Shown piece after piece: positions 2 to 22,183 of a DNA stretch of 22,183 bases. Each line of letters opens with the position of its first letter. Positions within the stretch are counted from its first letter, which is position 1. The stretch is from a virus (taxonomy: Duplodnaviria > Heunggongvirae > Uroviricota > Caudoviricetes). Location: IMG/VR virus record IMGVR_UViG_2778261277_000014; one strand, 5' to 3'. The notes under the pieces are model-generated. The model saw nothing but the letters and a program-made list of their open reading frames with translations. It made no database searches and had not been told where the DNA came from. A program made the translations under genes and the position numbers.

Positions 2-1297
2 TTAATTTTTCATTGCTTCGTTATGGGGCATGGTTGGGGCAAACTCGCTTAACTGTGTATTTAACAAAGCTACCTGTGCATTATTGTTTTCAGACATCCA
101 TTTTCCGTATACCTGAAATACCATTTGCGCATCTGCATGGCCCATCTGGTTTGCTATAAATGCCGGGTTAGCACCAGCTGTCAGCGACCAGCAGGCATAA
201 GTATGTCTCGACTGATATGATTTTCGATGGCGGAGTCCGGCACGTTTTATCGCTGCGTCCCACATCTGCCTTATTGAGTCAACGGTAAAATGGTCACCAT
301 AATTTTTTACTCTCGCTGACACTTCAGGTTGAAAAACAAAGGTGCATTTATGTTTTTCTGTTCTGCCATACTCTCTGAGGTGAACATCAATGATATGCTC
401 TTTGCTCAGTCTCGTTAATGTCATCTGACTCCGGAGAGCGTCGATTGCTGGCTTAATAAGATGAATGACCCGATTGGTTCCCGCCTGTGTTTTTGGGACC
501 GTGAAACGGTCTTTTGCTAAATTTCTCCTGATCATCATTGTTCCATTTTTCAGATCTATGTCCTCCCATCCAAGTGCACACAGCTCACCAGGGCGAACGC
601 CAGTATAAACAGAAACACACCATAAATTTTTGGCTTGCTGATTTCTGCACGCATCGATAAGACGGATGAATTCCTCCCGCGAAAGAGGATCCGGAATGGT
701 TCTTGATTCCTTTAATGGCGAGATCCCCTTAAACGGGTTATCTGCCAGGTAACCGTTATCAACACCAAACTGGAACACGGCGTTAAGATTTGTCATGTAA
801 TTATTTACAGTTACAGCCGATCTCCCTGGTTGTGTAACAATATAGTTACTTTTGGGGATCTGGTATCCAGTCAGTAGCTCTTTACGAACCTCCAGTAATT
901 TTTCTTTATTAATCGATGAGGCAAGATTTTTTTCACCGATTATGCTCAGGATATTTTTGATGACGGCACGGTATGTGTTGAGTGATGTTTTTGCGACTTC
1001 AGTTTCTTTCAGTGCCAGAAATTTTTCAGCCAGTTCTTTTATGGTTAAATCTTGTCGGGCCTCACCAAATTTTTCCAGATTGCGTGAGGAGGGAAACTGT
1101 TTTGCATAGTCGAAAACACCAGTTTTTATTGCGTAACAAACAGAGGCGCGTAGCTCACCTGCAACGCGCCTGTTTTTTGCTGTGTCAGGAACCCCCAGGT
1201 TTTCCCTGACTCTTACGCCTTTATAAACAAACCAGATACGTAATTTCCCTCCATGGTTTTCCACGCCTGTCGGATATTTCATTTCAACTTCTCTCAT
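2..1297 (-). CDS. int: Phage integrase (tyrosine recombinase); probable true start at Met6 (coordinate 1282), complete with TAA stop at 2-4
   Basis: 431-aa ORF at the prophage edge next to an excisionase-like gene; C-terminal region has conserved R, H-x-x-R and Y residues typical of tyrosine recombinases (RHTYACW...). Weak SD (GAGAGAAG) before ATG at 1282, none before 1297. Confidence 0.88.
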   Translation of the reverse strand: MREVEMKYPTGVENHGGKLRIWFVYKGVRVRENLGVPDTAKNRRVAGELRASVCYAIKTGVFDYAKQFPSSRNLEKFGEARQDLTIKELAEKFLALKETEVAKTSLNTYRAVIKNILSIIGEKNLASSINKEKLLEVRKELLTGYQIPKSNYIVTQPGRSAVTVNNYMTNLNAVFQFGVDNGYLADNPFKGISPLKESRTIPDPLSREEFIRLIDACRNQQAKNLWCVSVYTGVRPGELCALGWEDIDLKNGTMMIRRNLAKDRFTVPKTQAGTNRVIHLIKPAIDALRSQMTLTRLSKEHIIDVHLREYGRTEKHKCTFVFQPEVSARVKNYGDHFTVDSIRQMWDAAIKRAGLRHRKSYQSRHTYACWSLTAGANPAFIANQMGHADAQMVFQVYGKWMSENNNAQVALLNTQLSEFAPTMPHNEAMKN

Positions 1298-1316
1298 TAG
1301 TTAGTGTGGCTTTTAG

Positions 1317-1568
1317 TCAAGTAAGATGACGTCTTGGTCTTGCTGATGCCTGGCGCTCAATCCAGCGATCAATTTCTTCCAGGTTGTAAAAGCATGGACT
1401 GTTATCCCATGGCATACCGTCATGAGCGACATGCTTATATTCCCTTCCTTCCATAAACGATTTTTCCCGGGCCTTTTTTAACGTACCTTTTTTTATTCCT
1501 TTCAGCGCAATTAACTGCTCTTCGGATACCCATTTGCCGGGAGAGACAATCATGATTACTTCGCTCAT
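1317..1568 (-). CDS. xis: Excisionase-like small DNA-binding protein (Xis)
   Basis: 83-aa ORF immediately upstream of int on the same strand; contains a 'GREY' motif reminiscent of lambda Xis (DGREY); position is typical. Confidence 0.6.
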   Translation of the reverse strand: MSEVIMIVSPGKWVSEEQLIALKGIKKGTLKKAREKSFMEGREYKHVAHDGMPWDNSPCFYNLEEIDRWIERQASARPRRHLT

Positions 1569-1640
1569 CGATTTCTTTATCTCTTACATCAGACGAGCGC
1601 CGGTTGCAGAATACCAGTCACAACCGGCGACAGTTGAACA

Positions 1641-4112
1641 TTAAGAATCAGCCTGACTCGGGATCAGTTTTTGCCAGATAGCTGAAACGTATTTTGCCTG
1701 GTAACGGGCGTCATCAAGTGCATTATGGCGCTCACCTTCGAATGGAATAGCCGTTCTGGCATCGAAGTCTATGGCTTTCCCCAGCTCAACGATTGTGCGT
1801 ACATCGCGATCGTTGTAGTAACGCCACGGGCAGGGGATCCCCTGCCGTTCGTATGAACGGCGCAAAATCGTGTTGTCGAAGTTGGCTCCATTTCCCCAGA
1901 CATGAACAAAAAATTCACCGGAGTTTTCGTCGATAAATTCCCGCAATTGTAACAGTGCATCATCTAACGGGATTTCATCGGTCATAATGGCAGATTGCGC
2001 TTCGCGTGATTGTTTAAGCCACCATTTAATGGTGTCCCGATCAATGACTCCGCCAGCAGTTTCCAGATCGATAGTCTTACTAAATTCCGGTCCCATATCT
2101 CCGGTTTGCGGATCGAAAAATATTGCACCTATTGAGATAATCGGGGCATCGGGATTTTTTCCCATGGTTTCAAGGTCGATCATCAGATGAATCCCCGCTC
2201 TGCTGGTGGATGTGAGATTATGATGACCGTTTGCCTTAATTAAGGGATCTGACGCCTCGCCAGTTTCACTATCGCTGGCATGATGCTGATTGCCGCCAGT
2301 GTTCTCCTTGTGCTGATGCGCAGTACCTTCCATTTCCTCCGGATCATTTTCCTGAACTTCAGGCTGATTCTCTCCATCGAATATTTCCTGGTATGTTGCG
2401 TCACCCATCACCGCACCACAATCAGGGCAGTTGCCGCCACCGCTCTGACCGCAGGCGGTGCAGATCTTTTCCGGTTCCTGTTGCACTACTGGTTCAGGTT
2501 GTTTCGTTTCTGGCTCGTTTTGTTGCGTATTTGGGCTGTTTTGTTCCGCTTTCTGGTCGTTCTGTTCCGTTTCTTGCTGGTTCTGGTTCACAGAATCGCG
2601 GGTCTGGATCCCCTTAATCCATTTCGGATCATTCGGGTCGCTAATCCCTTCAACAAATTTACCACGTGATACTGCAAGCAGTTCATCGGCGTCAGGCTGG
2701 CTGATATTGGCTGCCTGCATAATTTTGTTTACTTCGTCAGCGGTAACTTTTACTGACCCTGGTTGTGCGGTCGTGTCAGATGCACCAGTATTTTGTTGTG
2801 AACCTGAGTATGTACCGTTTTTGCGGGCGAAATATTCTTCTTTCGTGATTTCAGTAGCCCCAGCAGACAGCGCCTTATCCAGACCAGAAAGTTTATTTGC
2901 GCGACCGTATTTTTCGCCATCCTTGTCGGTGAAGAGGAAGTAGAACGGCCCCTCACGTTCTACAGATGGTTCGACTTCCACTTTGCATTCGGTTTTTTCG
3001 TTGTCTGGAATTGCCGTTTCCACTGCATCAGTTTCTGGTACTGGCGACGAGAGAGTATCAGTTGCGCTCTGATTTGTTCCTTCATCTTCAAACACGCCCT
3101 TTGTAGTCAGGTATTCAGTAATGTATTTGTTCAGTGCCACAGGGTCTTTGTGAATGTCGATCGGACGTTCACGGACAAGGCCAAAAATAGTCTGGCGGTC
3201 GTAGCGAAGGGCATCAGGCTGTTTGCGCATTGATGCCGAGATACGCTTCCAGTCTTCGCGGTCGTTGTCGATAACTTCATTTTTTGCCCAGCGATGGATG
3301 CTGCCGTCAATGTTTCCGGCATCCACATCACCAGGCCAGAGAGCGTAGGCCAGTTCGTCATCCAGTGTTTTCCATGTCTGCTTGTATTCGCGATGAATGG
3401 CAGCAATGACCGGGTTGATTTTTCCTGTTGAATTTTCAGTGTGCTGTTGATTGGCTCTGGCGCGGGCGAGATCAACAACAGACGTGTATTTTCCGGCTTC
3501 CTTGCGTTCACCTTCGCGACGTTTTTTCCAGATGCGCATCTCTGCCTGAATTTCGGGCCATTTGGCACCAGGCTTACATTTATGCTTAACCCACCCGATG
3601 GCATGCAGCTTAAGCTCCGGATACATAGCGTTAACTTCTGGCATTTTCATCAACGCTTCAACGATATGGCCGTCGAATGTTGCCATGTCTTCCTGCAACA
3701 ATTCCTGTGCGCTAATCACCATATCAACAGTGATGTTTTCACATGTGTCGAACTTAACCATGACAGCGTTCTGTACTTCAGGGGCTAGGTTGTCAAAAGT
3801 GACGTTCATCGGATCGGATTCAGTCTCGACCGGGACAAAGGAAGCAGACGCCTCATCCCAGCGGTTTTCCTGCATATATTCAGCATCCCAGGAATCGAGG
3901 GCAGGGCGGGGTATACCGGGTTTATCCTCGCAAACAAGAAATTTATAAGCGCAGTCCTGAGCAGCCGGATAATGTTCCAGGAATTGCCAGTGAAATTTTG
4001 CGCGGGCGCGACGTTCATCACCGGCTTCAATGGCAGTGGCTACAGCGACGGCACCTTCTTCCTTTATTGCCTGTTCGTCCGGAATGGCGGCGCAAATAAA
4101 GACTTTACTCAT
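1641..4112 (-). CDS. Large multidomain exonuclease: N-terminal unknown domain, C4 zinc-ribbon, Q/E/N/P-rich repeat linker, C-terminal DnaQ-like DEDDh 3'-5' exonuclease domain
   Basis: 823-aa ORF; C-terminus carries Exo I (MIDLETMG), Exo II (WGNGANFD) and Exo III (HNALDDARY) motifs; CTACGQSGGGNCPDCG zinc-ribbon; sits where lambdoid recombination/exonuclease genes lie. Confidence 0.85.
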   Translation of the reverse strand: MSKVFICAAIPDEQAIKEEGAVAVATAIEAGDERRARAKFHWQFLEHYPAAQDCAYKFLVCEDKPGIPRPALDSWDAEYMQENRWDEASASFVPVETESDPMNVTFDNLAPEVQNAVMVKFDTCENITVDMVISAQELLQEDMATFDGHIVEALMKMPEVNAMYPELKLHAIGWVKHKCKPGAKWPEIQAEMRIWKKRREGERKEAGKYTSVVDLARARANQQHTENSTGKINPVIAAIHREYKQTWKTLDDELAYALWPGDVDAGNIDGSIHRWAKNEVIDNDREDWKRISASMRKQPDALRYDRQTIFGLVRERPIDIHKDPVALNKYITEYLTTKGVFEDEGTNQSATDTLSSPVPETDAVETAIPDNEKTECKVEVEPSVEREGPFYFLFTDKDGEKYGRANKLSGLDKALSAGATEITKEEYFARKNGTYSGSQQNTGASDTTAQPGSVKVTADEVNKIMQAANISQPDADELLAVSRGKFVEGISDPNDPKWIKGIQTRDSVNQNQQETEQNDQKAEQNSPNTQQNEPETKQPEPVVQQEPEKICTACGQSGGGNCPDCGAVMGDATYQEIFDGENQPEVQENDPEEMEGTAHQHKENTGGNQHHASDSETGEASDPLIKANGHHNLTSTSRAGIHLMIDLETMGKNPDAPIISIGAIFFDPQTGDMGPEFSKTIDLETAGGVIDRDTIKWWLKQSREAQSAIMTDEIPLDDALLQLREFIDENSGEFFVHVWGNGANFDNTILRRSYERQGIPCPWRYYNDRDVRTIVELGKAIDFDARTAIPFEGERHNALDDARYQAKYVSAIWQKLIPSQADS
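2480..2600. repeat. Imperfect ~20-bp tandem repeats inside the exonuclease gene (encode the Q/N/E/P-rich low-complexity linker)
   Basis: Direct reading: reiterated units resembling TTCTGG(C/T)..GTT(T/C)TGTT(C/G)CG on the plus strand; on the minus strand they encode repeated QN.QE..EQN peptide units. Confidence 0.6.
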
Positions 4113-4750: not shown

Positions 4751-4808
4751 AAAAACGGCGGCAGAGCAGTCACGGAGTAAAACTGATACCGCCAAACGTC
4801 ACCAGAAA
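4751..4808 (-). ncRNA. dicF: DicF-like small RNA (about 53 nt) ending in an intrinsic terminator (GGCGG...GCCGCC stem + U tract)
   Basis: Minus-strand sequence UUUCUGGUGACGUUUGGCGGUAUCAGUUUUACUCCGUGACUGCUCUGCCGCCGUUUUU matches, from memory, the published DicF sRNA at all but about one position; located between the ydf genes and dicB. Confidence 0.65.
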
Positions 4809-8787: not shown

Positions 8788-9720
8788 ATGGAAATCAACA
8801 AAGAAAAATTGTCAGGTTTACTTAACTACTTCGAGTCTCGCAAGAAATACGCTGCAACTCGAATATCTAGTTTATCCAGTCAGAATGAGATCTGTTTCGC
8901 TTTGTCAGGATTGACGTTTCGAAACGGGCCTTATGTTTTCCAAGACGTAGGTGAATTAAGGGAGGTACTTCATCCACCAGGAGAGATAGAGTTAGCCAAA
9001 GCGCTTAAGAGCAAGTCGCTACTCAGCGCTGTTGCTCGTCATATGCCCGCAGTTACGCATGAGCTTGCGTTGCAAAGCAGTGAGTCGAAATTTTCTCAAT
9101 CAGACCTGACTATCGGATGGTGGATCATATCCGCGATCCGATGCCGCACACTCACCGATATACTTGTTCCTGCAGTAGCAAGTGCATCTTGGGATGTATT
9201 CCCTGCTCTTCAAGCCAACTCGTGTGAAGTCCAACTTCTTGAGGACGTGCCGGCAGTTCGGAGAATAAGCCCAAGTGTAGAGATATCAGTAGAGTCTCTC
9301 GACTGGGTTCAAGAGAATCTCAAGCGTTGGATAGATCTGCTAGAGCAACCAGCATTCCGGCTCGCTATTGATTCTTTAACTACTCACAACCAACACGCGA
9401 ATTTGAGAATGGCTGCTGCTGCTTTATGGGCAGGATTTGAAGCGCTCTTTGGAATCAATTCAGAGCTTCGTTTTCGTCTTGCTCTTATGGCCGCAGCATA
9501 TCTTGAGGAGCGAGGGCCTGATCGTTTAGCCACCTATCGTAGGGTTAAGAAGCTGTATGACTACCGTTCGAAGGCAGTGCATGGGGGAGCTACGTCAGAT
9601 AACTTTTTAGTTGAGCATATAATTGAGGTACGAGTGCTTTTATCCCGATTAGTGTGTCGCATGACAGAGATCGGAAAAATGCCCACAACCGACGATTACG
9701 AGGAACGGCTTCTAACTTAA
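8788..9720 (+). CDS. Hypothetical 310-aa protein with a C-terminal HEPN-like R-x4-H-G motif (YDYRSKAVHGG); candidate abortive-infection RNase
   Basis: Long ORF with its own upstream AT-rich region and hairpins; R-x4-6-H is the HEPN signature; located in an accessory region next to a hok toxin. Function is inference. Confidence 0.7.
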   Translation: MEINKEKLSGLLNYFESRKKYAATRISSLSSQNEICFALSGLTFRNGPYVFQDVGELREVLHPPGEIELAKALKSKSLLSAVARHMPAVTHELALQSSESKFSQSDLTIGWWIISAIRCRTLTDILVPAVASASWDVFPALQANSCEVQLLEDVPAVRRISPSVEISVESLDWVQENLKRWIDLLEQPAFRLAIDSLTTHNQHANLRMAAAALWAGFEALFGINSELRFRLALMAAAYLEERGPDRLATYRRVKKLYDYRSKAVHGGATSDNFLVEHIIEVRVLLSRLVCRMTEIGKMPTTDDYEERLLT

Positions 9721-10191: not shown

Positions 10192-10402
10192 TTTCACATT
10201 GGCGAGGTAACGGTAGTTAAGTAGAATGGCTGCGGGTGCTTGAGGCTATCTGCCTCGGGCATGAACACCAACGGCAGATAGAGAAAAGCCCCAGTTAACA
10301 TTACGCGTCCTGCAAGACGCTTAACATTAATCTGAGGCCAATTTCATGCTAGACACATGTAGGTTAGCCTCTTACGTGCCGAAAGGCAAGGAGAAGCAGG
10401 CT

Positions 10403-10558
10403 ATGAAGCAGCAAAAGGCGATGTTAATCGCCCTGATCGTCATCTGTTTAACCGTCATAGTGACGGTACTGGTAACGAGGAAAGACCTCTGCGAGGTACG
10501 AATCCGAACCGGGCAGACGGAGGTCGCTGTCTTCACAGCTTACGAACCTGAGGAGTAA
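10403..10558 (+). CDS. hok: Hok/Gef-family type I toxin (HokD/RelF-like, 51 aa)
   Basis: MKQQKAMLIALIVICLTVIVTVLVTRKDLCEVRIRTGQTEVAVFTAYEPEE is a textbook Hok sequence; AAGGAG SD upstream; intrinsic terminator downstream. Confidence 0.9.
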   Translation: MKQQKAMLIALIVICLTVIVTVLVTRKDLCEVRIRTGQTEVAVFTAYEPEE

Positions 10559-13770: not shown

Positions 13771-13846
13771 GGCCCTTTAGCTCAGTGGTGAGAGCGAGCG
13801 ACTCATAATCGCCAGGTCGCTGGTTCAAATCCAGCAAGGGCCACCA
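13771..13846 (+). tRNA. tRNA with CAU anticodon (ileX/ileZ-like, probably tRNA-Ile2; Met not excluded)
   Basis: Full cloverleaf by eye: acceptor GGCCCTT/AAGGGCC, D-arm GCTC..GAGC, anticodon loop CTCATAA, T-arm GCTGG-TTCAAAT-CCAGC, 3' ACCA; resembles E. coli ileX. Confidence 0.85.
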
Positions 13847-13946: not shown

Positions 13947-14023
13947 GCGTTGTTAGCTCAGCCGGACAGAGCAATTGCCTTCTAAGCAATCGGTCACTGG
14001 TTCGAATCCAGTACAGCGCGCCA
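13947..14023 (+). tRNA. tRNA-Arg (UCU anticodon), argN/argO/argU-like
   Basis: Cloverleaf: acceptor GCGTTGT/ACAGCGC, anticodon loop CTTCTAA, T-arm ACTGG-TTCGAAT-CCAGT, 3' GCCA; resembles argU. Confidence 0.85.
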
Positions 14024-14487: not shown

Positions 14488-15020
14488 ATACATATCTGGA
14501 TTATCACCTGTTACGGTAAAAAGTGATTGCTTACTGTTTTTGTGAATGGCATTGCAGCAGCCGGATAATGTCAGTGCTGGCTGACGGTGTGCTGGTGGCG
14601 GGTGTGGTAGTTGTTGCTTTCCCGTTGCTGAAAAAGAAAACGCCAGACTGTTAGCCGGGTATCAGTTAGCGGGAGAAATTTTTAAATACTTCACAATTCA
14701 GGCGGTTGACTGTTCTCTGGTTTGCGGGGAGTTTGTTAAAAGAAACTGGCATGGTGAATCCCCCTGTGCGGAGGGGCAATCAGCGAGTAGGTATATGGGA
14801 TAATCGCGGATTCAGGTGCTGGTACTGAATTCACCGGGAGGCACCCGGCACCATGCACTTCAATAGATTCTCTCCACATTATGGATATTCTTTCAGAATA
14901 TCCCACGCAGACTTTGTGTAAATGTTAACAAATGTGCGTTTTATTTGATCTGATTCGCTGTTTGAGCGTCCAAAACAACGGTATATATAATCCTTTACTA
15001 TATGACATATGTGAGGAAAA

Positions 15021-15449
15021 ATGGGTTTTCGTAGCGCATCAATTCTTACGTTGATTATTAGTGGGATTATTATCGGGTGCACTGATGCTGTATCGACAAA
15101 TTATCATGACCGTACATCATATTACTCCGATAAAGCAATAGAGACACAGTATGTGAGTTCATCTGAACGTACTTCTGATGTTAGTGAGGATATCCGTCTG
15201 TATGCCCATCAAATCAAGAGCGCCATCGAAAAACAGTTCGGGGATGCGAGTAAGTATTCAGGAAAAGAGTGTACACTGAGAATGCATATGGCCCCGAATG
15301 GCCTTCTACTGGAGGTTAAAAGAGAAAGTGGAGACCTCGATTTATGTCGTGAAGCGATGAATGCGATAAAGAATGCTGATATACCTGCCCCCCCTTCGCC
15401 GGAAGTATATAAAGTATTTCAAAATGGGGTGCTGGATTTTAAACCCTGA
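15021..15449 (+). CDS. Lipoprotein with TolA domain-III-like C-terminal domain (142 aa)
   Basis: Signal peptide with lipobox IIGC; C-terminal ~80 aa (YAHQIKSAIEKQFGDASKYSGKECTLRMHMAPNGLLLEV...PEVYKVFQNGVLDFKP) closely resembles the C-terminal domain of E. coli TolA (recalled ...FKNAPLDFKP ending). Confidence 0.8.
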   Translation: MGFRSASILTLIISGIIIGCTDAVSTNYHDRTSYYSDKAIETQYVSSSERTSDVSEDIRLYAHQIKSAIEKQFGDASKYSGKECTLRMHMAPNGLLLEVKRESGDLDLCREAMNAIKNADIPAPPSPEVYKVFQNGVLDFKP

Positions 15450-15599
15450 TATTTATTGTTTTGTAATAAACGGTTTCGGCTTAGGTTTGTTCTGACACAA
15501 CTACGGCACTGAGCTAAATCTAGCGGATAGTCAGCTCTGAGCCAGTGGCGGACGTAACAACTACTATTGCTGAGATTTTAATGGATTGAGGAGCAAGAA

Positions 15600-15995
15600 G
15601 TGGGATTAAAGAAAATCGTTATGTTGACTTTTTGGGTCGGTTTTGTTGCGGGATGCACACCTTTACACCCTTCAGATTGCCACAAAACTACTGCTACAGG
15701 TAGTTGCAGTTCAGGACGCTGGGATGATCAGGATGAATGGGGGGCGCAAGCGCGGGGAATCAGAGCTGCAATTAATGCCAAACTTGATGAGCCGCATAAC
15801 TGGAAAGGGAAAAAATGCAGGTTGCATATGGAATTCTCTCAGGATGGCACGGCGTTAAAAATATCTACCAGTAACGGTGATAAAGCCTATTGCGAAGCGA
15901 TAAAGTCCGCAGCTCATAAAGCCAAATTTCCGGCCTTCAACAATCCGGAAGTCTACAGAGATTTTCAGAAATCTGGCTTTGACATGCGAGGTTAG
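15600..15995 (+). CDS. Second, divergent lipoprotein paralogue with TolA-III-like C-terminal domain (131 aa)
   Basis: GTG start 6 nt after GAGGAG SD; lipobox VAGC; C-terminal block (GKKCRLHMEFSQDGTALKI...CEAIKSAAHKAKFPAFNNPEVYRDFQ) shares the same pattern as the upstream paralogue. Confidence 0.75.
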   Translation: MGLKKIVMLTFWVGFVAGCTPLHPSDCHKTTATGSCSSGRWDDQDEWGAQARGIRAAINAKLDEPHNWKGKKCRLHMEFSQDGTALKISTSNGDKAYCEAIKSAAHKAKFPAFNNPEVYRDFQKSGFDMRG

Positions 15996-16120
15996 CTCTT
16001 CAATTACTATATCTCATTCATAGCAAACTGACAGATTTGATGATGTTCTATATACGAAACCTGTGATGTCAAGTCTGAGCTAATACAAATAAACATAATA
16101 TCAGAGAAATACATTTTATT

Positions 16121-16143
16121 AGCTCGCTACGGCGAGCTTTTTA
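16121..16143 (+). terminator. Intrinsic terminator after the lipoprotein pair (AGCTCGC-TACG-GCGAGCT + TTTTT)
   Basis: Perfect 7-bp stem, tetraloop, T tract. Confidence 0.7.
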
Positions 16144-16246
16144 TATTGCATCGTCTCCAGCATATATATCAATTAAGGCTCTGATTGATGTGTCTGGAAG
16201 CCTACACATAATAACTATGCCATCCGTTCCGTGCGGAGGTGAGGCT

Positions 16247-16462
16247 ATGAAATCCATGGACAAAATTTCAACAGGCATTGCCTACGGCACCTCCGCAGGC
16301 AGTGCTGGCTACTGGTTTTTACAGCTGCTCGATAAAGTCACGCCCTCACAGTGGGCAGCAATAGGTGTGCTGGGTAGCCTGGTATTTGGCCTGCTGACGT
16401 ACCTGACAAATCTTTATTTCAAGATTAAAGAAGACAGGCGTAAGGCTGCGAGAGGAGAGTAA
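16247..16462 (+). CDS. Class II holin / pinholin (phage 21 S21-like) with dual-start motif MKSMDK
   Basis: GGAGGTGAGG SD; two in-frame ATGs three codons apart (16247, 16256); TM segments and C-terminus ...[20 protein letters not shown] match recalled S21. Confidence 0.85.
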
Positions 16463-16466
16463 TCCA

Positions 16467-16778
16467 ATGACTCAAGACTATGAACTGGTTGTGAAAGGAG
16501 TCCGTAATTTTGAGAATAAAGTTACGGTAACTGTAGCCTTACAGGACAAAGAACGCTTTGACGGTGAAATTTTTGGCCTGGATGTCGCCATGGACCGTGT
16601 TGAAGGAGCTGCGCTGGAGTTTTATGAGGCAGCAGCCAGAATGAGCGTCCGGCAAGTCTTCCTGGAAGTAGCAGAAAAATTGTCAGAAAAAGTTGAGTCT
16701 TATCTGCAGCATCAGTACTCCTTTAAGATTGAAAATCCTGCCAATAAGCACGAGCGTCCTCATCATAAATATCTATGA
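16467..16778 (+). CDS. YdfR-like protein (103 aa) inserted between holin and endolysin
   Basis: GAGGAGAG SD; stop overlaps endolysin ATG (ATGA); same position and size as ydfR in Qin (recalled). Confidence 0.7.
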   Translation: MTQDYELVVKGVRNFENKVTVTVALQDKERFDGEIFGLDVAMDRVEGAALEFYEAAARMSVRQVFLEVAEKLSEKVESYLQHQYSFKIENPANKHERPHHKYL

Positions 16779-17308
16779 ACACAAAAATCAGATACGGCCT
16801 GTCGGCTGCCGTTCTGGCGCTGATTGGTGCTGGCGCATCTGCTCCTCAGATACTTGACCAGTTTCTGGACGAAAAAGAAGGTAACCACACAATGGCATAC
16901 CGCGATGGTTCTGGCATATGGACCATCTGTCGGGGTGCCACAGTGGTGGATGGAAAAACCGTTTTTCCCAATATGAAACTGTCGAAGGAAAAATGCGACC
17001 AGGTCAACGCCATTGAGCGTGATAAGGCGCTGGCATGGGTGGAGCGCAATATAAAAGTTCCACTGACCGAGCCACAGAAAGCCGGTATCGCGTCATTCTG
17101 TCCCTATAACATTGGCCCTGGTAAGTGTTTTCCGTCGACGTTTTATAAGCGGCTTAATGCCGGTGATCGTAAAGGCGCATGCGAGGCGATTCGCTGGTGG
17201 ATAAAGGACGGTGGACGTGATTGCCGCATTCGTTCAAATAATTGTTACGGTCAGGTTATTCGTCGTGACCAGGAGAGTGCATTAACCTGCTGGGGGATAG
17301 AACAGTGA
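16775..17308 (+). CDS. SAR endolysin (T4-lysozyme-like muramidase with N-terminal signal-anchor-release domain)
   Basis: N-terminal weakly hydrophobic Gly/Ala-rich segment ([16 protein letters not shown]) followed by E...D...T catalytic pattern ([20 protein letters not shown]); pairs with a pinholin as in phage 21. Confidence 0.88.
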
Positions 17309-17802
17309 ATCAGATATTCACGGTGATTTTGCTCGTGTTGGTAGGATTTGTCGTAGGTAATGTCTGGAGCGACAGAGGATGGCAAAAAAAATGGGCGGAG
17401 CGTGATGCTGCCGAATTATCTCAAGAGGTAAATGTCCAATTTGCTGTTCGAATAATTGAACAGGGGCGAAGTATATCCCGTGATGAGGCTGTTAAAGATG
17501 CACAACAGAAAGCCGCTGAAATTTCTGCCAGGGCTGCTGATCTGTCTGATAGTGTTAACCAGCTGCGTGCCGAAGCAACAAAATATGCCATACGCCTTGA
17601 CGCAGCGCAGCATACCGCAAATCTTGCCGCTGCCGTCAGAGGCAAAACAACCAAAGCCGCCGAAGGAATGCTCACCAACATGCTCGGAGATATTGCAGCA
17701 GAAGCTCAGCTTTATGCTGAAATTGCTGACAAACGCTACATCGCAGGAGTGACTTGTCAACGGATTTATGAATCTTTAAGAGATAAAAAATATCAGATGT
17801 AG
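17305..17802 (+). CDS. Rz-like inner-membrane spanin (i-spanin)
   Basis: N-terminal TM helix then coiled-coil-like, Ala/Gln-rich periplasmic region; overlaps endolysin stop (GTGA); contains an embedded +1-frame lipoprotein ORF. Confidence 0.8.
17498..17752 (+). CDS. Rz1-like outer-membrane lipoprotein spanin (o-spanin) embedded in Rz in the +1 frame
   Basis: Lipobox LTSC followed by a proline-rich mature region; GAGG SD 9 nt upstream of ATG 17498 (upstream ATG 17483 also possible). Confidence 0.6.
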
Positions 17803-18053
17803 ATTAATATTAAATCGGATTATTTTTAGCGCTGAATGTGAAATTTAAATAAAAAGGACTCTTCCATGAGTCAAAATCCTTGAAATCTTAAGGGTAAGAT
17901 AAAAGGTCATTAGACAGAATGACACGTTTTATTAATAAATAAAGCTATTGTTTCATTCGTGTGTTTTTCTTTACAAAAGTAATCCTTGCTATGGTTGGTT
18001 AATCATGCGTTAATGGTGTTCTGGTTTGTTACAAAATTATCTGAAGCAGTCAT

Positions 18054-18062
18054 TGTTATAAT
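18054..18062 (+). promoter_or_regulatory. Extended -10 element (TGtTATAAT) of a candidate promoter for the cold-shock gene, giving a ~95-nt 5' UTR
   Basis: Read directly in an AT-rich region; no good -35, consistent with UP-element/extended -10 promoters of csp genes. Confidence 0.4.
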
Positions 18063-18162
18063 TTTATTATTTGTACCTCTTGAGATTTCCTTGTTGGTTT
18101 TTCTCTCTGATATTTTTTTTCGGACCATTCTGCCCAAGGGCTAACTTCTTCAAAAGGTAATA

Positions 18163-18378
18163 ATGATGTCTAACAAAATGACTGGTTTAGTGAAATGGTT
18201 TAACCCTGAAAAAGGTTTTGGTTTCATCACGCCGAAAGATGGTAGCAAAGATGTGTTTGTGCATTTCTCAGCTATTCAGAGCAACGATTTCAAAACGTTA
18301 ACTGAGAATCAGGAAGTCGAATTTGGTATTGAGAACGGACCTAAAGGCCCTGCAGCTGTTCATGTAGTGGCACTTTGA
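18163..18378 (+). CDS. Cold-shock protein, CspA family (CspB/CspI-like)
   Basis: RNP motifs KGFGFI and VFVHF; about 70 aa; prophage-borne csp genes are typical of Qin. Confidence 0.9.
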
Positions 18379-18583
18379 GGTAGAAAATATTACAAACCAT
18401 ATTCACTTTAGATGCCCGTGTTGCCATGGTTCTCAGTATAGAACATCATCTTTTGATGTTTCTGACAGAAATCCTTTCGGGGCAAAATGTATCTTTTGTA
18501 AATCAATGATGATTACATTTGATAATATTTCACAATACTTAAATGTTAGCCATCTGTCGTTAGATTTAAGAAAGTGAAAATGA

Positions 18584-18606
18584 AGGCTCCTTCGGGAGCT
18601 TTTTTG
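18584..18606 (+). terminator. Intrinsic terminator (GGCTCC-TTCG-GGAGC + TTTTTT)
   Basis: Stem with TTCG tetraloop and T tract about 200 nt downstream of the csp stop. Confidence 0.5.
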
Positions 18607-18649
18607 CTTAGTGTCTAGTCGATGGATACTCACATATTACGGTAACATT

Positions 18650-18880
18650 ATGAAAAAAATAATAGTTTTTTTTAACTCTGAACCAGCAATGGTAGTGCCA
18701 GTGATGACCGGAGTTAACACCATCATGCGTGAATATCCAAATGGCGAAACAACACACCTCACTGTAATGGCTGCAGGGTTTCCATCTCTGACCGGAGATC
18801 ATAAAGTCATTTATGTAGCAGCGGATCGACATGTAACTTCAGAAGAAATTCTGGAAGCAGCAATGAGACTCTTGAATTGA
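18650..18880 (+). CDS. Hypothetical small protein (76 aa)
   Basis: ATG at 18650 (MKKIIVFF...); track ORF starts further upstream at 18611; no recognisable motif. Confidence 0.5.
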   Translation: MKKIIVFFNSEPAMVVPVMTGVNTIMREYPNGETTHLTVMAAGFPSLTGDHKVIYVAADRHVTSEEILEAAMRLLN

Positions 18881-19049
18881 TTTGATTCTAATGCATTGAT
18901 AATAAATGATAATCATCTTTATCTGTTTGTGTGAAATTTAGACCGTCGTATGTTGATTATTGCGATGTTTCATCTTATCTTTTATACGTTTGCTCCATAT
19001 AATTGACACTACTGTGTACCAGGACAGTCATAACAGACTAAAAGAGGAA

Positions 19050-19226
19050 ATGATGAACATTGAAGAGTTAAAAACAAAAACAGAAGCAGATATTTCTGAA
19101 TATATAACAAAAAAAATCATTGAGCTTAAGAAAAAGACCGGGAAAGAAGTTACCAGTATCCAGTTTACTGCACGGGAAAAAATGACTGGTCTTGAAAGCT
19201 ATGATATCAAGATTGATTTAATCTAG
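19050..19226 (+). CDS. GnsA/GnsB-family small protein (58 aa)
   Basis: AAGAGGAAA SD; the ...TGKEV..I.FTAREKMTGLESYD.KI... block matches recalled GnsB. Confidence 0.72.
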   Translation: MMNIEELKTKTEADISEYITKKIIELKKKTGKEVTSIQFTAREKMTGLESYDIKIDLI

Positions 19227-19521
19227 CATGTTTATAGTATTAGCATCAATTTCTCATCAGATGCTATTCAACAATACAAATTACCCATAAACCTCGTTTT
19301 TACGGGGTTTTGTTATATTTAAACATTACCGAATAGATATAAATCTCGATTGTCGATGGTATTGGTTGTGTGACAATACCTAGTCTTTCCGGTATGCCTG
19401 AAGAGAATACAAACGACAGATTATGTAAGGGAAACGTGCTGAAACTTTCACTCTTTCATGCTGAGTGATTTGACGTTATATTTTTAGCCGCAAGTGAAGA
19501 GCAAACGAATGGAGCGACAAA

Positions 19522-19728
19522 ATGCATAAAGATCAATACACTGATGCCCCCTCCCAGGAGCAGGTTCGTGTAAAAACTATGCTTAATAGCACCATTTCGA
19601 TGGGTTACCCGGATGTTGTAATTGCATGTATAGAACATCAAGTATCTCTGGAAGCATTCAGGGCAATTGAGGCCGCGTTAGTAAAGCACGATAAGAATAC
19701 GAAGGATTATTCCCTGGTGGTTGACTGA
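19522..19728 (+). CDS. Hypothetical protein (68 aa)
   Basis: ORF with GGAG-containing upstream region; no recognisable motif. Confidence 0.45.
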
Positions 19729-20089
19729 TCACCATAACTGCTAACCATTCTGACCATTTCACAAGTGACAGAGTCAATATCGTATTCTGTCACTGTAAGG
19801 CTAATACAGTACTGCAATTCAACTACAGCAATGCCTCGTATTTAGGTGAATTTACAATATCGTCCAGTTCGGATGCCGGCTGCATTTCTGAAGATAAGGC
19901 ATTTCGGTTCGCGTATTTTCCCCTCATGCTCGTCAGTCCTGCGCGTAGTAAGAAACAGGACACTCACACTAATTTGTGTGGGCATGCTGTGATGTCCTTC
20001 TGAATTATCCCCATGCCATTATGTAAAGCTCTGTTTCAGATGCTCGTCACGGTTGTCAGGCTGTCGGGTCCTCCCAGTGGGGGTCCCTG

Positions 20090-20112
20090 CCACGGGGCGG
20101 GAGCGTCGCGGA
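20090..20112. other. Candidate cos site (cosN-like GGGGCGGGAGCGTCGCGG) upstream of the small terminase gene
   Basis: Resembles the lambda left cohesive end GGGCGGCGACCTCGCGGG; lies about 180 bp upstream of the Nu1-like gene, as in lambda. Confidence 0.45.
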
Positions 20113-20289
20113 AAAAGACTAGTTTTTGCATTTCCATGGCGGCGGCAGCATGTTTGGTAATTTATTGATAATTAAAAGTTATTTCTCTTTTCACCTGTAC
20201 AATATTTTTTCTCCCTGTCATTAGACCAGTTTGCAATTAATTGAAATATATAAATAAACCTGATTTTCACCTGCCAGATGGAGTTGCTT

Positions 20290-20817
20290 ATGTCAAATGT
20301 GAGCGGGATCGGTGATGCTTATTACTGGAGTGTTTTTAAAATCGCCGAGGCCTTTGGGCTTCACCGGGACACAGTAAAAAAACGGCTCCTCGCGGCCAAC
20401 ACTCCTGTGGCTGCGACTGTCAGGGGGAACCCCGTTTACGCCCTGCAGCATGTCGGGCCCGCCCTGTTTAGTGTGAAGCATGAGGCAGCAGACTCTGTTC
20501 ATGATCCATCCCGTATGGAGCCGAAAGAGAGAAAAGACTGGTACCAGTCTGAAAATGAAAGGATCAAGCTGGAAAAGGAGCAGCGAAAACTCATCCCAGT
20601 TGATGAAGTAGTCATCGTCTATTCGTCCATGAGAAAGGCTGTCGTCCAGGTTCTGGAGACAATTCCGGATGTTCTTGAACGCGATTGCGCCCTGACTCCT
20701 CAGGCCGTCGGCGTTGTACAGCAGGCCATTGATGACCTGCGATACACTCTTCAGGAAAAATCCTACGAGGCTTGTGCTGCTGAATTAATTCCTGATGAGG
20801 AAGGAGAGAGTCTCTAG
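20290..20817 (+). CDS. Terminase small subunit (Nu1/NohA-like)
   Basis: N-terminal HTH-like region, acidic C-terminus (AAELIPDEEGESL) resembling the lambda Nu1 tail; ATG at 20290 with GGAG SD; immediately upstream of a gpA-like large subunit. Confidence 0.72.
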   Translation: MSNVSGIGDAYYWSVFKIAEAFGLHRDTVKKRLLAANTPVAATVRGNPVYALQHVGPALFSVKHEAADSVHDPSRMEPKERKDWYQSENERIKLEKEQRKLIPVDEVVIVYSSMRKAVVQVLETIPDVLERDCALTPQAVGVVQQAIDDLRYTLQEKSYEACAAELIPDEEGESL

Positions 20818-20825
20818 GAGGAATA

Positions 20826-21152
20826 ATGGGTTTTTCATCAGCCCGAAATTTGGGAAGGGACATATCGGCAGGATTTTCCCCACCACGTCGCATGCCGATT
20901 TCGGAGGCTGTTAAAAAATTCATGCGTGTTCCCAAGGGGGCTGGTAACTCGGTGCCATGGGATCCTGAACTGACACCCTACATCATTGAGCCCATGAACT
21001 GCCTGGCATCGCGTGAATACGATGCGGTGATTTTTGTTGGTCCTGCGCGAACAGGGAAGACCATTGGTCTGATCGATGGATGGATTGTCTATACCATCGT
21101 TTGCGATCCTTCGGACATGCTCGTTGTGCAGATGACCGAAGATAAGGCGTAA
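20826..21152 (+). pseudogene. Terminase large subunit (lambda gpA-like), N-terminal 108-codon fragment truncated by IS insertion
   Basis: WDPELTPYIIEPMN...VGPARTGKT parallels lambda gpA N-terminus (WETLPFQRAIMNAM...KSARVGYSKM); reading frame ends at a TAA created at the IS boundary (GTAAGCG at 21149). Confidence 0.72.
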
Positions 21153-22183
21153 GCGTTAACGGAGCGCCGTATTGACACTTATTTATTGGTGAGTACTACG
21201 TTCCATGGCAGGAGTTCATCAACTCGGTTGGAAGGCCATTCCGGCAGCACGCTCAGGATATGGCGCAGATACGCTTCCGGATCGATACCGTTCAGTCGGC
21301 AGGTACCGATCAGCCCGTACAGTAGCGCACCACGCTCGCCACCATGATCGTTGCCGAAGAACATGTAATTCTTTTTCCCGAGACAGACGGCACGAAGCGC
21401 TCTTTCTGCTGTGTTATTGTCCGCCTCCGCCAGACCGTCATCACTGTAATAACAGAGGGCGTCCCACTGATTCAGTACATAGCTGAACGCTTCGCCCAGT
21501 CTGGATTTTTTCGACAGCGTGCCATTCTTCTCCACCATCCATTCATGCAGCGACGTCAGTAACGATTTGCTTCGCTGCTGCCTGACTGCAAGACGTTCAG
21601 ACTCCGGTAAGCCCCGTATTTCATCCTCGATGGCGTACAGTTCACTGATACGCTTCAGGGCTTCTTCTGCCGTCGTACTTTTGCTGCTGATGTATACATC
21701 GTGGATTTTTCGCCGGGCATGGGCCCAGCACGCAACTTCTGTCAGTGCACCACCTTCACGTTCGGCACTGAACAGCCGATCGTAACCGCTGAACGCATCC
21801 GCCTGCAGGATACCCCGGAAGGGACGAAGGTGTTGTACCGGATGTTTTCCCTGCCTGTCTGGTGAGTAGGCGAACCAGACCGCCGGTGGCTCTGATGAGC
21901 CCGCATTCCGGTCATCCCGGACATACGTCCAGATGCGTCCTGTTTTTGCCTTTTTTCTGCCCGGTGCCAGCACTTTTACTGGTGTGTCGTCAGTGTGAAC
22001 CTTGCGGGTGTTCATCACGTAATGGTACAGGGTATCATTCAGCGGAGTCATTAACTGACAACATGCGTCAACCCAGTTGGAGAGTAATGCCCGGCTCAGT
22101 TCGATGCCCTGGCGGGCAAAGATTTCACTCTGACGATACAGTGGCAGATGTTCGCAGTATTTTCCCGTTAACACGCGGGCAAG
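21149..22183 (-). mobile_element. IS66-family insertion sequence, right end (partial; continues beyond the window)
   Basis: Element terminus begins GTAAGCG (characteristic of IS66-family ends) immediately 3' of a TnpC-type transposase gene; interrupts the terminase gene. Confidence 0.78.
21179..22183 (-). CDS. IS66-family transposase TnpC, C-terminal ~334 aa (N-terminus lies outside the window)
   Basis: Frame is open to the window edge (track's Met at 22174 is a GTG); contains the CWAHARRK motif typical of IS66 TnpC. Confidence 0.85.
   Translation of the reverse strand, partial: LARVLTGKYCEHLPLYRQSEIFARQGIELSRALLSNWVDACCQLMTPLNDTLYHYVMNTRKVHTDDTPVKVLAPGRKKAKTGRIWTYVRDDRNAGSSEPPAVWFAYSPDRQGKHPVQHLRPFRGILQADAFSGYDRLFSAEREGGALTEVACWAHARRKIHDVYISSKSTTAEEALKRISELYAIEDEIRGLPESERLAVRQQRSKSLLTSLHEWMVEKNGTLSKKSRLGEAFSYVLNQWDALCYYSDDGLAEADNNTAERALRAVCLGKKNYMFFGNDHGGERGALLYGLIGTCRLNGIDPEAYLRHILSVLPEWPSNRVDELLPWNVVLTNK

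Follow-up and report, generated by a model that had tools for sequence, protein, structure and literature searches.

An IS66-family insertion truncates the large terminase gene of a lambdoid Escherichia coli prophage

Disruption of prophage genes by insertion sequences (ISs), terminase genes included, is a well-documented route of prophage decay in Escherichia coli. Among the described cases is prophage Sp4 of the O157:H7 strain Sakai, in which nu1 is disrupted by an IS and which is nevertheless found in DNase-resistant particles, likely by way of the terminase of prophage Sp14, the cos sequences being near-identical (PMC2669165). Sp4 resembles the prophage described here in that it is lambdoid and that an IS has knocked out its terminase while its other functions are kept (PMC2669165). 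It differs in that the small subunit was hit, by another IS, and in that packaging by trans-complementation was shown experimentally there, whereas the present case is known from its sequence.

Two further cases are found in complete genomes. In strain PCN061, an ISEc23 copy (comparator locus L001, 9108-11639) is located 157 bp further into the same large terminase gene (terL) and is flanked by the duplication ACATTATG, and in isolate 2015-01-2097 (NZ_LR881940.1; locus L018, 6314-8845) ISEc23 is located in the small terminase gene (terS), with the duplication ATCCATCC. Both are simple insertions, in which the distal half of the gene and the head genes follow directly after the IS. They share with the present locus the prophage module, the type and orientation of the IS and the fact that a terminase gene was hit, the three sites lying within 795 bp, but they occupy other positions with other duplications, and both gene halves are visible there. 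Because the positions and duplications differ (ACATTATG and ATCCATCC in those two cases), the insertions are regarded as independent events.

As a whole, the prophage invites comparison with Qin of E. coli K-12, with which it has in common the rspB neighbourhood, genes named dicB, ydfD, ydfA, hokD, rem, ydfR, rrrQ, rzpQ, cspI, ynfN and gnsB by PGAP, and the DicF RNA. Qin, however, is heavily deleted and without head or tail genes, whereas the one lesion visible here is a single recent IS insertion. The inserted element is likewise comparable to ISEc23 and IS682 in its 2532-bp full copies, its gene order tnpA-tnpB (IS66 Orf2)-tnpC, its inverted repeats of the GTAAGCG type and its 8-bp duplications, but differs from both in that it is a mosaic, of which just the first 1035 nt lie within the stretch analysed.

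This stretch, hereafter the window, is 22,183 nt long and represents the last 22,183 nt of draft contig NLFZ01000013.1 (131,190 nt; assembly GCA_002225765.1), position 22183 being the end of the contig. The contig was reached by exact look-up of the 108-amino acid (aa) product described below, and its last 11,358 nt are identical to the tail of the window. The window starts one base before the integrase stop codon (integrase ORF 2-1297, minus strand) and holds neither an attachment site nor a structural gene of the prophage. In the relative CP55_Sichuan the integrase abuts rspB, the locus at which Qin lies on the K-12 map. The features at the terminase end of the window are as follows.

20290-20817, plus strand: small terminase subunit gene terS, DUF1441 family, 175 aa, intact (Pfam DUF1441, 2e-44; PHROG 141 'terminase small subunit', 4e-65)
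20826-21152, plus strand: truncated large terminase gene terL', 108 codons and a stop (ORF list; Pfam GpA_ATPase)
21039-21062, plus strand: Walker A motif (P-loop) GPARTGKT, TerL residues 72-79 (translation and motif position)
21141-21148, no strand: predicted left copy of the target-site duplication, GATAAGGC, the 8 bp adjoining the IS (breakpoint against the intact allele)
21149-21174, no strand: terminal inverted repeat on the tnpC side (IRR), first bases GTAAGCG (comparison with the other end of a full copy)
21149-22183, minus strand: IS66-family element, first 1035 nt of 2532 bp, ended by the contig end (100% identity to full copies)
21179-22183, minus strand: tnpC (DDE transposase), last 334 of 537 codons, reading frame still open where the window ends (Pfam, NCBIfam)

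The product of terS is the same in the comparator prophages (WP_001389340.1), and eight bases separate terS from terL'. An earlier note, made from the letters of the window, had described a gpA-like terminase cut at about 108 codons with its Walker A motif kept, and ORF 20826-21152, with GPARTGKT at residues 72-79, agrees with that description. The Pfam GpA_ATPase profile matches residues 40-108 of terL' (E=4e-20), but over profile positions 2-69 of 247 only. The intact homologue WP_000507030.1 has 699 aa (a 2100-nt terL), of which residues 40-303 form the ATPase domain and residues 325-643 the gpA endonuclease domain (PF20454). The N-terminal ATPase domain (PF05876) is incomplete in the 108-aa product, which is without some 195 ATPase residues (about 70% of the domain), and the whole C-terminal endonuclease domain (PF20454) is missing. 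As is known for lambda gpA, a terminase of the gpA type that lacks Walker B, the remaining part of the ATPase and the nuclease can neither cut cos nor translocate DNA. With most of the ATPase domain and all of the nuclease domain missing, the 108-aa product should be dead, and the prophage would have lost its own working terminase and thereby autonomous packaging.

Alignment to the uninterrupted terL allele places the last shared base at 21148 and the first base of the IS at 21149 (GTAAGCG...), so that the TAA reported at the IS terminus in the earlier note is exact to the base. With a slash marking the breakpoint, intact relatives read ...GAAGATAAGGC/CCGCGAGC at this site and the window reads ...GAAGATAAGGC/GTAAGCG; complete E. 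coli genomes with a nearly identical prophage likewise read GATAAGGC/CCGCGAGC, against GATAAGGC/GTAAGCG in the window. In codons, CP55_Sichuan has GAA GAT AAG GCC CGC GAG and the window GAA GAT AAG GC/G TAA GCG. Codon 108 is GCC in the intact gene and GCG in the window, both encoding Ala, the final G being IS base 1, and the stop codon TAA of terL' consists of IS bases 2-4.

The earlier note had itself named an assembly artefact as a possible refutation. In that case the join of terL and IS would be chimeric and the true genome would have an intact terL; that the window ends at a draft-contig end inside a multicopy repeat speaks for such an error. The identical junction, however, was assembled independently from two other read sets in Logan (SRR9162939 and SRR17480441), the contigs of which extend into the IS by 30 and 29 nt, respectively, as expected of k=31 graphs, and the break coincides precisely with base 1 of the IS inverted repeat rather than with a shared internal k-mer. 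The recurrence of the same junction in three assemblies, together with a break exactly on the IS terminus, makes a chimeric join highly improbable. Seven short contigs from metagenomes or read sets with the 108-aa protein (L007-L013) were considered as further insertions and rejected, as they carry an intact terL that ends by chance at codon 108-109; because GCC also encodes Ala, exact look-up of the truncated protein picks up such contig-end partials, which is a selection artefact.

The 1035 nt of the window from 21149 onward are matched at 100% identity by many IS66-family copies in E. coli, the matches starting at 21148-21149. The TnpC fragment matches Pfam DDE_Tnp_IS66 (PF03050; 7.6e-95) and DDE_Tnp_IS66_C (PF13817; 1.8e-16) and NCBIfam transpos_IS66 (NF033517; 3e-104, 349 bits against a cut-off of 180). 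This identity and these profile matches uphold the initial attribution of the insertion to the IS66 family and of the remainder of the window, 21179-22183, to a TnpC-type transposase on the opposite strand. Terminal inverted repeats of the family are reportedly about 20-30 bp long and start with GTAAGCG. The repeat in the window starts in this way, the second end of this copy lying outside the window; in a full copy from strain 89-3156 (L003, 4001-6532), both ends begin GTAAGCG and, with one of them read as its reverse complement, agree at 22 of 26 positions. That full copy is 100% identical to the window over the shared part, is 2532 bp long and is flanked by the 8-bp duplication GTTGAAAG; its TnpC, named merely 'IS66 family transposase' by PGAP, shows 100% amino acid identity to the fragment. 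The sister copies have a three-gene layout of tnpA (HTH_Tnp_1), tnpB (TnpB_IS66) and tnpC, and the window ends within tnpC. As it is tnpC that adjoins terL', the IS genes lie antisense to the phage late operon.

In comparisons using genomic copies as references, the full copy shares 96.3% nucleotide identity with ISEc23 from PCN061 and 91.7% with a copy of IS682, whereas the 1035 nt in the window are 91.7% identical to the former and 96.8% to an IS682 copy. By the ISfinder convention, isoforms share at least 95% nucleotide identity over the element, and the element here may be an ISEc23 isoform of which 1 kb is IS682-like. Mismatches to ISEc23 number 88 in IS nt 1-1000 and 7 in IS nt 1001-2532, and the stretch nt ~200-1000 differs from IS682 at about 13 positions but from ISEc23 at 75. 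Judged by these counts, the element is an ISEc23/IS682 mosaic, IS682-like at nt ~200-1000 and ISEc23-like at nt 1001-2532. Three other copies of the same IS type are flanked by 8-bp duplications (GTTGAAAG, ACATTATG and ATCCATCC), and 8-bp target duplication is the rule for IS66 (PMC6778807).

The contig ends 1035 nt into the IS, at the point from which the element is near-identical to ISEc23, and this position suggests that the assembly collapsed there on a further ISEc23-type copy in the genome, the contig end being a repeat-collapse break. The second IS end, a second GATAAGGC and the remainder of terL were not found in the protein collection or in the DNA contig collections. An ORF of 570 aa that begins MSPRRNDNNVHD was predicted to follow the IS; it is present in the protein collection (P0001), on IS-free contigs only, and these contigs carry a 4-bp deletion or begin inside terL. 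The predicted partial products in which 8-11 IS-derived codons are fused to terL are absent from the protein collection, and neither junction string has an exact match in JGI metagenome contigs or in contigs of GTDB-representative genomes. These far-side negatives are weak, because exact matches were needed and the collections are probably without this strain.

A contig that stops inside the IS, with a far side that was never recovered, would also fit an IS that marks the boundary of a rearrangement, recombination with another ISEc23-type copy having deleted or inverted the DNA beyond it and left a true remnant prophage, with the remainder of terL and the head and tail genes missing or located elsewhere. 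E. coli genomes contain many identical copies of the IS, with a median of three matching places per genome, truncated terL remnants exist in complete genomes, for example that of MRE162, and in Agrobacterium IS66 copies drive large deletions by recombination (PMC6778807). Such a rearrangement is nonetheless considered unlikely, given that in both complete-genome analogues the insertion is simple, its 8-bp duplication is intact and the distal half of the gene is present, that the event looks very recent, and that the failed searches for the far side are weak negatives.

The favoured reading, with a probability of roughly 85%, is a simple IS66-family insertion into codon 108 of terL, with autonomous packaging lost and the rest of terL most likely behind the IS, by analogy with the insertions in PCN061 and 2015-01-2097, which are simple, have a duplication of 8 bp and keep the distal half of the gene. 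An IS of 2.5 kb would have transposed into codon 108 of terL in a lambdoid prophage at the rspB (Qin) locus of the E. coli chromosome, its tnpA-tnpB-tnpC genes lying on the strand opposite the phage late operon. Translation of TerL now ends at the TAA inside the IS terminus, yielding a 108-aa product composed of the N-terminal region and Walker A; no working terminase of the prophage's own would be made, and all genes upstream of terL are unchanged. A simple insertion predicts a far junction ...CAGTTTACGCTTAC/GATAAGGCCCGCGAGC..., followed by terL, portal and capsid genes.

The conclusion drawn in the earlier note that the prophage is packaging-defective is a sound one with respect to its own terminase, but the wording that it cannot package DNA is too strong in view of Sp4 (PMC2669165). 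With the same genetics, the DNA may still be excised, replicated and packaged by means of the terminase of a related co-resident prophage, or terL may be repaired by recombination, so that the element would be transmissible. Sakai Sp4, found in DNase-resistant particles with its terminase small-subunit gene hit by an IS (PMC2669165), is the precedent for this outcome; here int and xis are undamaged, as are the regulatory genes and terS, and some E. coli genomes have up to seven places matching the terS-terL region. The median, however, is one such place per genome, and rescue of this kind is considered possible, if rather less probable than lasting loss of packaging.

Upstream of terL', the regulatory, lysis, dicB and moron genes had been described as intact, and the ORFs of the window do correspond to the non-pseudogene annotations of a 99.98%-identical prophage. 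The intact genes comprise int, xis, an exonuclease gene (exo), ydfD, dicB, a repressor/cro pair and the replication region; genes for a HEPN-domain protein, hokD, rem, DUF968, RusA, Q and TolA-like proteins; genes for holin, DUF1327, lysozyme and Rz; and cspI, ymcF, ynfN, gnsB and terS. The RNA features, the Rfam matches being above the gathering score, and the candidate accessory genes of this region are listed below.

4756-4807, minus strand: DicF small RNA adjoining dicB (Rfam)
8788-9720, plus strand: 310-aa HEPN-domain protein, between the replication genes and hokD
10234-10408, plus strand: sok antitoxin RNA of the hokD locus (Rfam)
13771-13846, downstream of Q: phage-borne tRNA (tRNA-Met (CAT) by ARAGORN; tRNA-Ile by PGAP for the identical gene in relatives)
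13947-14023, downstream of Q: phage-borne tRNA-Arg (TCT)
14720-14910, plus strand: STnc100 small RNA (Rfam)
15021-15449 and 15600-15995, plus strand: two TolA C-terminal-domain proteins, upstream of the holin gene
18008-18424, plus strand: cspA-type thermoregulator 5' UTR ahead of cspI (Rfam)

The first tRNA, which PGAP calls tRNA-Ile, is presumably of the lysidine-modified type. An IS421 copy in CP55_Sichuan sits between the two tRNAs. The HEPN-domain protein and the TolA C-terminal-domain proteins are candidate accessory or defence morons.

The CP55_Sichuan prophage (L002), the terL of which is uninterrupted, differs from window positions 548-21148 at three places in 20.6 kb (99.98% identity), apart from its own IS421. 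The sole three differences are as follows.

6447: G/A single-nucleotide polymorphism (SNP) in the divergent repressor-cro intergenic (operator/promoter) region
19109: extra A in gnsB, which keeps gnsB in frame in the window; gnsB is frameshifted in CP55_Sichuan
19152: SNP just downstream

Two further prophages with an intact terL, those of E47 and PSS-07, are 100% identical to the window over 15209-21148 (5.9 kb), and the IS segment of the window has no private mutations relative to other copies. Of 5,426 complete genomes, 744 have the uninterrupted site and none has the junction, which was found in a few draft or read-set assemblies only; ten complete genomes cover the region of the site partially, and the weakest match, through which they were sampled, is a terL remnant ending elsewhere. 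The relatives keep a full lambdoid structural module and gene set. These observations point to a recent, rare and probably neutral insertion rather than to long-term retention. The earlier note had taken the prophage for a probably domesticated element, a view left unsupported by a sequence that departs from that of an intact-terL relative at just three positions in 20.6 kb and by a junction present in 0 of 5,426 complete genomes; several lesions, loss of modules or a lesion fixed in a lineage would mark a domesticated or cryptic prophage, and here the upstream genes include no pseudogenes, the structural region lying outside the view.

Eight Logan read sets contain a terL with a 4-bp deletion, CCGC, which starts at the same nucleotide as the IS insertion (21148/21149); they comprise L014 (5930-5950) and six similar places, and L015. 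Read sets with the deletion include SRR31115628 and SRR13870892. In this allele GATAAGGC/CCGC/GAGC has become GATAAGGC/GAGC, and terL is split into ORFs of 124 and 570 aa. No complete genome was found to carry the deletion, the top matches being 98.0% identical with a 4-nt gap. The allele was found by way of an ORF that reports disruptions within about 28 codons only, so that the coincidence of position amounts to roughly a few percent. The deletion may be what an imprecise excision left behind when the IS was lost between GCG microhomologies, or it may stem from GC..GC slippage in the intact allele. A shared haplotype was considered as evidence that the deletion allele descends from the IS allele and was rejected as uninformative, since E47 and PSS-07 are identical over 5.9 kb as well; a search of the literature on excision of IS66-family elements yielded nothing useful.

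In each of the three ISEc23-type insertions, which fall in a 795-bp part of terS-terL, tnpCBA runs antisense to the late operon, and the duplications are ATCCATCC, ACATTATG and the predicted GATAAGGC. It is conceivable, but decidedly improbable, that terS-terL is a preferred site at which ISEc23-type elements land and leave and that the CCGC deletion is a footprint of excision; the cluster of three insertions may instead reflect ascertainment bias. Other IS types, namely ISEc8, IS2, IS3 and IS421, are found elsewhere in the relatives.

The IS-split terL is a case of real but ordinary prophage decay, an event of a kind that is already known, and this specific insertion is already present in public assemblies. 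For curators, terL here is a pseudogene made by a mobile element, and the contig stops at a break in a repeat rather than at a biological end; programs that call prophage completeness will score the element as defective. The effect of IS hits in prophage genes is softened by complementation between co-resident prophages (PMC2669165). The finding is of little import beyond annotation, and its mildly interesting thread is the 4-bp deletion at the same nucleotide in other strains: if terS-terL were indeed a preferred site and the deletion a footprint of excision, the locus would provide natural evidence for excision of IS66-family elements and for repeated IS-driven silencing of prophage packaging.
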